From Escherichia coli O157:H7 (GTDB taxonomy: Bacteria; Pseudomonadota; Gammaproteobacteria; Enterobacterales; Enterobacteriaceae): 64,000 nt of DNA. The stretch is taken from the NCBI RefSeq assembly GCF_013167455.1, contig NZ_CP038328.1; one strand, given 5' to 3'. Each line of letters opens with the position of its first letter. Position 1 is the first letter of the stretch. The position numbers are program-made. Shown here piece by piece: positions 27,001 to 30,000 of the stretch.

Positions 27001-30000
27001 TTCACCGTCGGCGGGTAAGGCAAAACAAACTCTATACGCATCAGTAACCTCTTTTACCCGAGCACGCCGGTTGCAAAAGCGTGATCAAGAAAACGAAAAA
27101 TTAAATCAACCTGGGAACCATGCTTTTCTTCGAACGCCAGCGGATCCGCATGAAGCTCGTTGTGATGCTCCCGACACAGCGGTAGCGTGAAAATATCGTG
27201 GGATTTTGTTCCCATTCCACCCTGACCATGACCAATCAGATGATGAGGATCGTCCGCTGGCTTACCACAACACGCACACGGCTGTGTCTTTACCCAGCGT
27301 GTGTATTTCTCATTTACCCAGCGGCGACGTTTAGGTCGTTTCATGAAGGATTTCGGAGACTCCGGATCAACGGCAATGCTGACCACCGTCTTTTCCTGTG
27401 GTGGGTTCTGTTGCTGGTGGGTGTGAGGCGGTAGCGCAATATTTTTTGTGCGCTGCTTCAGTATGCTGGTGGCGGTCTGTTCTCCCGGTATGATGTCGCT
27501 TTCACGGTATACGGAGCGGATTTTTTCCGCCGGTAATCCCAGAGAACGACGCGATACTGCCTCAGGTAATGCGTCCACCACCTGATTGCAGACTGCCCAC
27601 CAGGATAATTCAGCCAGCGATAATTCCCGTTCCTGTATGCCATTCATTGCGTGGCGGATGACGTCAATCATCCAGGCGGCCAGATTCTGTTGAGCAAGTT
27701 GCTCAAGTGATTCGGATGTCTGGTCGCGCAGCTGGTTGTCGCAGTGCCAGCACAACACCATCGCGCCGGTACCGTAACGATGTATGACAGTTTCGCTGTG
27801 ATGATAATCACCATGAGGCCACTGGCAGGATTTCACGTGACGTAATAACCAGTCAGACAGTGCACCAGCGCCACCCGCAGCACGGATCACCCGCTCATCG
27901 CTGAAAAATGGCAGTAGTGATTTATCTTCCGCCAGCGGCTGGTGAACGGCAGGTACAACCCCGGACGGCAGAGCTCGCATGCTTTTTGGTTCCGGCTCCA
28001 CCAGTATTCTGCCGTTATGGAATGCTGACATTGATTCACGGCCTGGCTTAACGATAACCAGACCGAGTTCCGGTACCAGAACAGGTCGAAGTAATACCCG
28101 CACATTACCTCCAGATCCGTTGCTGGAATGTGCGGGACGGACGCGGTGGCCGTTCGGAGTAAGGGAGCCTGACGGAGATTATCCAGTGACGGTAGTCGAG
28201 GCTAAGGGCTTTTTTAACCTCGCATCCGCGCCTGCGGTAACACTGAATGAGCCATTCGGCCTGTTCTTCAGTGCATGGGGGATGCTGGTACCAGTCAGAT
28301 TTGAATGCGTGAAAACACCGTCCGCGCCTGCTGGCAAAGACGGCAGAATCATCAGAATTGTATAATTTGGTATCGTGCGCCATCGGTTGTCTCTGCTGGC
28401 GCAGCAGGTGCCAGTTGTTCAGGCTGGCGTGCGAATTGTAAACCAGAATGCCAGGAAAAAACAAAACCCGCCGAAGCGGGTTAAGTGCGGGTGCGTTGAG
28501 GATGCCTGATTCATCAGAGGTGGCGAGGGATTTCTCCCCCGCCAGGTCTCTTACTCCTCAGGTTCGTAAGCTGTGAAGACAGCGACCTCCGTCTGGCCGG
28601 TTCGGACTCGTACCTCGCAGAGGTCTTTCCTCGTTACCAGTGCCGTCACTATGACGGTTAAACAGATGACGATCAGGGCGATTAACATCGCCTTTTGCTG
28701 CTTCATAGCCTGCTTCTCCTTGCCTTTCGGCACGTAAGAGGCTAACCTAGATTTGCCGTTCATAGATTGAGCCTCAGATTAATGTTAGGCGTCTTGCAGG
28801 ACGCGTAATGTTAACTGGGGCTTTTCTCTATCTGCCGTTGGTGTTCATGCCCGAGGCAGATAGCCTCAAGCACCCGCAGCTATTCTACTTAACTTCCCAT
28901 TACCTCGCCAATATGAAATCGGTCAGAAAGACAGACGTCCCATAAGGACAACAACGGAAAAAGAGATTTTGCTTGATGCTATTTACCTCTGCACCATGAA
29001 GTTGCGCCAAAATCCCAGTGGTGATAACAGGAATTTGGTTGTTGGTGATTGGGGAAAGAAGTACGTTAGACTGTGGGTTAGTTCATTGACATGATAGTTA
29101 CCTGCCTTCAATTTCCTAAGCAAGCGATGTAAACGATAATCAATATCAAATGTATTGACAGGTAAAATAATAACGATGTACCTTTGCTGATAACATATAT
29201 CAGTCTTAAATCATAATGGAGGTAGATAAAATAACTAAACACACACAACAAATTTTTTATCAGTGACATAGCATATCTTAAGCATCCTTTAATGCTCATG
29301 GGGAGAACGCATGACTAAACATATGGACATTCATTGTCAAACACGCATATTTAACTCAATTAACCATGACACCAAATATAAAATATGTATTTTTACTCCA
29401 AAAAACATTAAAAAAAATAATGCAACTCTTTATATACTTGATGGGAATAGTGCCAACAATTACATTTCTGATATTCTGCCTGTTATTGATGCACTACCCA
29501 ATCCACCAGTGTTAGTTACACTTGGTTATGAATCTTGGAATAACCTTAGCATTCATCGCCGTGCTTACGATTATACTCCTGATGGTGAAAATGCTATTGT
29601 TGATAACTCTAAACCAGCATGGATCTACTTTACTGGTGGAGGAAGCCAGTCTTTCCGAGAATTATTACTAACTCAGATCATGCCATGGGTTAGTACTATT
29701 GCTCCGAACAGTTCCAGAATCGGTATATGGGGACACTCGCTAGGTGCTATTTTTGTGCTTGATTGCTTAAAAAATAATTCATGCTTTAACTATTATTATA
29801 TATCTGCACCATCACTTCTATGGCAGAATGAAAGAATCATCAAGATAATTAAAGATGATATATCAGAATCAAAGCACACTAAAAGTATATGCTTGCTTAA
29901 CGGAAATCTTAGCCTTGATTACTCCGCATCTTTATATCCTGAAGCCATCAAAGCGGAATCTGTTTTGAGAAATATTTTGACAGAAAAATACAGTAATTTT

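Follow-up and report, generated by a model that had tools for sequence, protein, structure and literature searches.

A small membrane toxin of the hok family is encoded on the minus strand at 28551-28706 of the window, that is, of the whole 64,000-nt stretch of Escherichia coli O157:H7 DNA that was analysed. The 51-aa Hok protein, MKQQKAMLIALIVICLTVIVTALVTRKDLCEVRVRTGQTEVAVFTAYEPEE, corresponds to the final 51 codons of a minus-strand open reading frame (ORF) of 70 aa (28551-28763), in which 19 mok-like codons are followed by hok in one frame. Hok matches the Pfam family HOK_GEF (PF01848) with 79.4 bits (cut-off 22), and the ORF matches PHROG 251 ('MokW-like host killing') with an E value of 1.3e-32; these assignments to Hok are unambiguous, and the scores of the NCBIfam Hok models, which lie under their curated cut-offs (48.4 versus 73), are uninformative beside them. 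The protein carries the invariant columns of the family that are common to Hok of R1, HokC, HokD and HokW (the conserved Cys and TRK..LCE). It is identical to K-12 HokD at 50 of 51 positions (98%) and shows 43% identity to Hok of plasmid R1, and the full 70-aa Mok+Hok ORF shares 87% identity with MokW of phage 933W. No second Hok motif was found in the whole window. Because the motif occurs only once there and the leader of the gene matches the Rfam family RF01794 with an E value of 2e-24, the match to the hok family lies far beyond chance. The earlier note on this DNA, which had described a 51-aa hok-family type I toxin almost identical to HokD/RelF, was therefore correct in this respect. Its mok-like upstream extension of 19 codons is also borne out, being in frame as in mokW of 933W and mokC of K-12. 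The idea that the mok gene of R1 is out of frame with hok was rejected, as the R1-type copy that we examined has an in-frame mok of 19 codons, and the in-frame extension of the O157:H7 locus is therefore normal.

In the sense of transcription, hok is preceded by DUF1627, DUF977 and alpha/beta hydrolase genes and followed by a 92-aa ORF, a DUF968 gene, RusA and antiterminator Q; hok, DUF1627, DUF977, the 92-aa ORF, DUF968, RusA and Q all share the minus strand. The downstream 92-aa ORF had no Pfam or NCBIfam match and belongs to a PHROG family of unknown function. Because DicF is present in the window (37612-37663), the prophage is Qin-like. The toxin locus is situated between the replication and nin/Q genes of this lambdoid prophage of E. 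coli O157:H7, and it has the same orientation as the early-right transcription unit, which runs from replication through nin to Q. The earlier note had stated that hok follows the DUF968 gene and that no relBE genes lie beside it. The second statement holds, as neither relB nor relE was found within ~6 kb of hok; the first must be reversed, as hok, read 5' to 3' on its own strand, comes before the DUF968 gene.

The hok mRNA appears to have a promoter, leader and terminator of its own. A promoter scan placed a sigma-70-like promoter at 28882-28911 on the minus strand (-35 TTGGCG, an 18-nt spacer and -10 TAGAAT), and its -10 element ends 7 nt 5' of the putative mRNA start, a position that is conserved in the 933W, hokC and R1-type loci. 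The start of the Rfam model and homology together suggest GGGUGCUUGAGG at 28875 as the 5' end of the mRNA. A terminator scan identified an intrinsic terminator at 28455-28482 (minus strand; stem at 28465-28482, then a T-run). With the 3' end set after this terminator, the full-length hok mRNA would extend over 28462-28875 on the minus strand (~414 nt). The match of RF01794 to 28701-28875 (minus strand) covers the full model (1-157) and scores 105.6 bits, the gathering score being 59; the comparators hokC, hokW and the R1-type locus scored 118.3, 113.5 and 87.2 bits, respectively, and no match was obtained at K-12 hokD. The last three consensus bases of RF01794 are the hok AUG. As its matches always lie on the hok strand, this Rfam model, although named 'sok', describes the sense-strand hok leader. 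The hok Shine-Dalgarno sequence, AAGGAG, can be read directly at 28716-28721 (minus strand). A terminator-like site is also present at 28936-28950 on the minus strand, upstream of the hok promoter. Rfam additionally returned a sub-threshold isrK match over the hok 3' untranslated region (28461-28542; 27 bits, cut-off 50), which we rejected as a structural coincidence; a search with this 3' region for the Salmonella small RNA IsrK as a hok 3' relic gave only hok cassettes and generic terminator hairpins of unrelated phages.

A Sok-like antisense gene is predicted on the plus strand, convergent with hok and complementary to the mok translation initiation region. Its promoter (28720-28748; -35 TTGCCT at 28720-28725, a 17-nt spacer and -10 TAACCT at 28743-28748) is identical to the sokW promoter of 933W and aligns with those of sokC and R1 sok. 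Mapping of the ends of the annotated sokW and sokC RNAs gives a Sok-like RNA of ~71 nt at 28755-28825, with its start at G28755, as both 5' ends lie 8 nt inside mok, and with its 3' end at 28825-28831 (28831 by the sokC annotation). The mok AUG thus falls inside the Sok-complementary region, as read from the sequence. The RNA is predicted to consist of a 5' single-stranded tail over the mok AUG, a long hairpin and a U-tract, and its minimum free energy (MFE) of -34.5 kcal/mol corresponds to z = -6.7. The Sok-like promoter and complementary region for which the earlier note had suggested a search are therefore both present. For the related phage locus, sokW was shown experimentally to neutralise HokW (Takada et al., PMC8621323), and the promoter-less sokW construct of the same study, made with primer YO-421, alters the same -10 element.

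Folding of the hok mRNA (28875-28460, 416 nt) gave an MFE of -175.6 kcal/mol (z = -8.2 versus 100 shuffles), MFE predictions for an RNA of this length being approximate. In both the MFE and the centroid structures, the translational activator element tac at the 5' end (28864-28875; mRNA nt 1-12) pairs with the fold-back inhibitory element fbi near the 3' end (CCUCAA-C-GCACCC, 28489-28501; nt 375-387) through 12 bp and one bulge, all of these elements lying on the minus strand. The energy of this duplex (-21.5 kcal/mol) was equalled by only 1 of 500 shuffled 5' ends. In the same full-length fold, ucb, an anti-Shine-Dalgarno segment (AAGCCCC, 28817-28823; nt 53-59), sequesters the mok Shine-Dalgarno region (GAGGCU, 28770-28775; nt 101-106), which precedes the mok AUG by 8 nt, and the hok Shine-Dalgarno sequence is paired within a stem that contains dcb (AGCCUC, 28738-28743; nt 133-138). 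When 42 nt or more are removed from the 3' end, so that fbi is lost, the predicted fold changes: tac pairs with ucb, the mok Shine-Dalgarno region pairs with dcb in a target hairpin, and the hok Shine-Dalgarno sequence is largely freed. A 5' metastable hairpin is predicted for a shorter transcript. These two predicted folds match the closed and the open state that PMC9841398 describes for R1; the name ucb is also taken from there. The structure prediction that had been proposed as a check thus recovered the fold-back pairing (nt 1-12 with nt 375-387). The region in which it was expected (28707-28900) proved too narrow, as fbi lies downstream of the hok stop codon; similarly, the interval proposed for the whole locus (28551-28900) contains hok, but fbi and the terminator, at 28465-28501, lie beyond it. 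The complete cassette occupies ~28455-28911.

Comparison among close relatives suggests that this pairing is maintained. Across 53 distinct relatives, tac is invariant, and the changes in fbi fall in the bulge in eight sequences, keep a G-U pair in three and disrupt a pair in one. An invariant tac and fbi changes that spare the pairing would argue for purifying selection.

Taken together, the locus is very probably a complete, self-contained type I toxin-antitoxin cassette of the hok/sok family and of the prophage hokW/sokW type, in which every sequence element is present, as are, by prediction, both conformations. Expression, processing, toxicity and biological role are what we infer for the O157:H7 cassette. 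On the R1 paradigm, its own promoter would yield a stable hok mRNA, which the pairing of tac at the 5' end with fbi in the 3' untranslated region would keep inactive while ucb hides the mok ribosome-binding site. Slow trimming from the 3' end would remove fbi, tac would switch to ucb and the target hairpin between the mok Shine-Dalgarno region and dcb would form. The short-lived Sok RNA could then bind the processed mRNA, which would be destroyed; if Sok were depleted, mok would be translated and the coupled hok with it, and Hok would enter the inner membrane and kill or lyse the cell. The 3' processing, RNase III cleavage of the duplex and neutralisation by Sok have been established experimentally for R1 (PMC9841398) and hokW-sokW (PMC8621323), and HokD is among the toxic control sequences in a bioRxiv survey. 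In a prophage, the cassette would probably pay off by stabilising the element and/or by aiding lysis when the prophage is induced, by analogy with the hokW-sokW locus of Sp5, whose role was measured in another prophage and at another position. In Sp5, sokW RNA is lost and HokW is made after mitomycin C treatment in a RecA-dependent manner, and phage release is halved without hokW-sokW. R1 hok/sok, for its part, partially excludes T4. The cassette is already known in kind, and it represents an ordinary prophage hok/sok system: such loci have been annotated in lambdoid prophages since the 933W genome, hokW-sokW was tested in 2021, and the enrichment of hok in prophages has been surveyed (bioRxiv 2025).

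Several other readings of the locus were weighed against this one. The PGAP label 'HokD' on the identical gene and the 50/51 identity to K-12 HokD would suit a toxin ORF that has no regulation of its own and is expressed only as part of another operon, downstream of its other genes, as happens in relBEF. This reading has already been refuted, and practically nothing is left of its probability, because a complete leader and a Sok gene are present; in addition, no relB or relE lies within ~6 kb, and the promoter, leader, mok and Sok of the O157:H7 locus are all four lacking from K-12 hokD. A second concern is that the cassette may be intact in sequence yet functionally silent, a passively carried relic like the chromosomal hok loci of K-12. 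The literature, including the bioRxiv survey, reports the chromosomal hok/sok loci of K-12 as inactive, with hokA, hokC, hokD and hokE inactivated, and chromosomal hok loci are reported to be unable to mediate post-segregational killing; an intact sequence is therefore no guarantee of function. However, the K-12 loci were inactivated through insertions of IS elements or rearrangements, none of which is found here, where every element is intact. The invariance of tac in 53 relatives and the avoidance of pair breaks in fbi point to purifying selection, and the 93%-identical hokW-sokW is experimentally active. We therefore consider a silent relic quite improbable.

A functional variant that is compatible with the complete-cassette explanation concerns what would trigger the toxin. 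Because the cassette lies within the early-right unit and is co-oriented with it, antiterminated read-through onto the Sok promoter is a plausible trigger: on induction, read-through would collide with this promoter, Sok would fall, and Hok would serve as a lysis helper rather than as part of an addiction module. The shared minus strand of DUF1627, DUF977 and the genes from hok through Q agrees with this, as do the loss of sokW and the appearance of HokW in Sp5 after mitomycin C and the halved release without the locus. On the other hand, hokW in 933W/Sp5 lies outside the nin region, so its activation cannot need this geometry, and the terminator-like site at 28936-28950 stands ahead of the hok promoter. 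Read-through is thus a possible but somewhat doubtful addition to the main explanation. The gene labelled 'HokD' by PGAP in O157:H7 represents, on our reading, a full mok/hok/sok cassette and not a relBEF-type orphan, and automatic annotation leaves out the Sok RNA and mok.

Close relatives vary chiefly in an 11-nt patch at mok codons 2-5, which forms the loop of the predicted Sok-target hairpin and determines how the first ~6 nt of Sok read. The patch occurs in at least three linked alleles, namely GCCGUU (in the O157:H7 cassette), GUGAGA and GUUCAG (in hokW/hokC), in a leader that is otherwise almost invariant, and the stems of the hairpin around the patch are conserved in all alleles. The predicted duplexes between a non-cognate Sok 5' segment and its target reach ~50-65% of the cognate energy. 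This pattern could suggest that the patch alleles are specificity alleles that make the hok/sok cassettes of co-resident prophages orthogonal, a proposal that we regard as unlikely. If it were so, the loss or induction of one prophage would not be masked by the Sok of another, and any control of cross-talk by the Sok-loop alleles would bear on the coexistence of related prophages in enterohaemorrhagic E. coli (EHEC) genomes. The idea that Sok alleles exclude one another within a genome was considered and found no support. Only two same-genome pairs occur among the fetched loci, which is too few for the purpose; one pair (L028 and L029) carries an identical allele and the other (L044 and L078) different ones. 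A genome with two same-allele prophages counts against the patch setting specificity.

The 481-bp locus is 100% identical to that of many E. coli O157:H7 chromosomes, in which PGAP names the gene hokD. Matches to the cassette are widespread, being found in 4,731 of 5,426 complete E. coli genomes (median 2 and maximum 10 matching places per genome), and O157:H7 genomes have up to 8-10 such places. The leader is borne by 4,296 of the 5,426 genomes, a count that probably includes chromosomal hokC-type loci and is not a prophage-specific frequency. In addition, 110 phage records contain a match, including 933W and VT2-Sakai, in which the 93%-identical locus bears the annotation mokW/hokW/sokW, and at least 592 IMG/VR contigs encode relatives. 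Seven IMG/VR loci were scored by regular expression as lacking tac or the core. One of these (L081) ends at the contig edge upstream of mok, and the other six are single-base variants, with the leader present in all six. In 80 IMG/VR contigs, homology usually begins at ~28894-28953, level with the hok promoter or a little upstream of it, and either ends at 28457-28464, after the terminator, or runs on into the nin genes. The terminator is thus also the downstream edge at which the homology of relatives breaks. These boundaries show that the cassette is a discrete mosaic module bounded by its promoter and terminator.

The alignment with characterised hok/sok loci that had been suggested as a check identified hokW-sokW of 933W and Sakai Sp5 as the closest known system, with 93% DNA identity over 86% of the cassette. 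The 933W locus, annotated as mokW/hokW/sokW, also belongs to a lambdoid prophage of O157:H7, and the two loci agree completely in tac, fbi, the Sok promoter and the body of the Sok hairpin, and share the 70-aa in-frame Mok architecture. They differ at mok codons 2-5, where the first ~6 nt of Sok read GCCGUU in our locus and GUUCAG in sokW, at the C terminus of Hok (TAYEPEE versus VDYESEK in HokW) and in their terminators and flanks. The 933W cassette is situated at the right end, past the tail-fibre genes, whereas the cassette described here lies between the replication and nin genes.

The hok/sok (parB) locus of plasmid R1 has the same order of elements, and the conformations predicted for its full-length and truncated mRNAs are the same as well. 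In the R1-type IncF copy, mok is the same in-frame 19-codon extension and the Sok promoter occupies the same position, and the tac/fbi pairing is kept by compensatory changes (GGGUGC/GCACCC in our locus versus GGCGC/GCGCC in the R1-type copy). The Sok hairpin is longer in the prophage locus than in R1. As R1 is a plasmid and our cassette resides in a prophage, post-segregational killing after plasmid loss is not its obvious selective context. The hokC/mokC/sokC (gef) locus of K-12 likewise has a leader that matches RF01794, an in-frame 19-codon mokC and 68% identity over Mok+Hok, and sokC starts at the same 8-nt offset inside mok. However, this locus is chromosomal and lies outside any prophage, an IS186 element disrupts it immediately downstream, so that the fbi region is missing, and the sokC hairpin is 18 nt shorter than the Sok hairpin of the O157:H7 cassette.

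K-12 hokD (relF, in the relBEF operon of Qin) is the third gene of its operon, directly preceded by relB and relE and devoid of mok and sok. Both prophages are Qin-like and have DicF, and K-12 Qin matches the window at three places only: 27054-28400 (the ydfU/DUF968 region, 83%), 28457-28720 and 36180-36500. Over 28457-28720, which includes the hok Shine-Dalgarno sequence, the coding sequence, fbi and the terminator, DNA identity is 97.7%. The homology stops 14 nt before the hok ATG; beyond this point K-12 has relE-relB, in place of the lost promoter, tac, ucb, start of mok and entire Sok gene. Downstream, a DUF968 gene, which in K-12 is ydfU, is found close to hok and on the same side in both loci, with rem inserted between the two in K-12 and the 92-aa ORF at this place in O157:H7. 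The contrast of the earlier note, in which hok is accompanied by DUF968 rather than by relBE, is therefore false, as only the 5' side differs. The relE-hokD junction of K-12 is found in 1,173 of 5,426 genomes and is thus the less common form, and the inactivation of hokD has been ascribed to rearrangement in the literature. By these alignments, K-12 hokD is a derived 3' fragment of a complete cassette, and the O157:H7 locus represents the complete form; with the complete locus in O157:H7 and the fragment in K-12, the absence of relBE from the O157:H7 locus is no anomaly.

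The Rfam family RF01794, described as 'sok antitoxin', matched the window at 28701-28875 (minus strand) as well as two comparison loci, L004 at 602-754 (minus strand) and L002 at 2520-2694 (plus strand). Because every match lies on the hok strand, the consensus ends at the hok AUG, and the annotated sokC and sokW RNAs occupy the opposite strand, RF01794 is a model of the hok mRNA leader rather than of the Sok RNA itself. Linked substitutions form a hypervariable block at 28749-28760 (mok codons 2-5; mRNA nt 116-126), around which the leader is almost invariant; in the Sok-target hairpin this block is the loop, and it is also the 5' end of Sok. 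The window carries the allele AACGGCAAATC, which is shared by 62 of the 80 IMG/VR loci compared, and TCTCACAAATG is present in 18 of the 80, while CTGAACACATG is found in hokW and hokC.

At the other end of the transcript, an Rfam match to the Salmonella sRNA IsrK (28461-28542, minus strand), which at 27 bits (E 0.003) falls short of the cut-off of 50, spans the hok 3' UTR with its fbi element and terminator. As a further search brought up nothing but hok cassettes and sequences with a generic resemblance to terminators, this match is probably a coincidence. Within the coding region, the Tyr47 codon TAC (28566-28568, minus strand) lies in the context UUACGAA (28563-28569), which is the same in K-12 hokD and which we take to be the tRNA-Arg2 anticodon-loop-like context edited by TadA. 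We regard Tyr47 as the equivalent of the reported edited position. A-to-I editing, which changes Tyr to Cys, has been reported for the hokC, hokD and hokE mRNAs, and the edited position is said to correspond to Cys46 in HokB (PMC12214031).

Elsewhere in the window, DicF (37612-37663, plus strand) marks the prophage as Qin-like, and STnc100 was located at 23460-23650 (minus strand). An ALIL pseudoknot (RF01497; 20814-20930, minus strand), presumably an IS3-family frameshift element, suggests an IS copy. Three tRNA genes (23730-23976, minus strand) lie downstream of the antiterminator gene Q, and directly downstream of Q is a gene, likewise on the minus strand (25339-26163), that is AT-rich and encodes an intramembrane protease of the CPBP/Rce1-like kind; in lambdoid prophages, the site just downstream of Q is a frequent place for cargo genes.

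Upstream of the cassette, an AT-rich island (29000-30430; GC 0.31-0.36 versus ~0.53 in the flanks) contains an ORF for a 257-aa alpha/beta hydrolase (29311-30084, plus strand; phrog_8493) that runs opposite to the early operon. Lying between DUF977 and the hok cassette, the island resembles an inserted moron, and only 4 of the 80 IMG/VR relatives have this sequence upstream. The DUF977 ORF of the window (30436-30864; 142 aa) is intact, whereas in the O157:H7 strain PV15-279 (L001, 1622-4485) DUF977 is split upstream of the cassette by an insertion of ISEc8, an IS66-family element.
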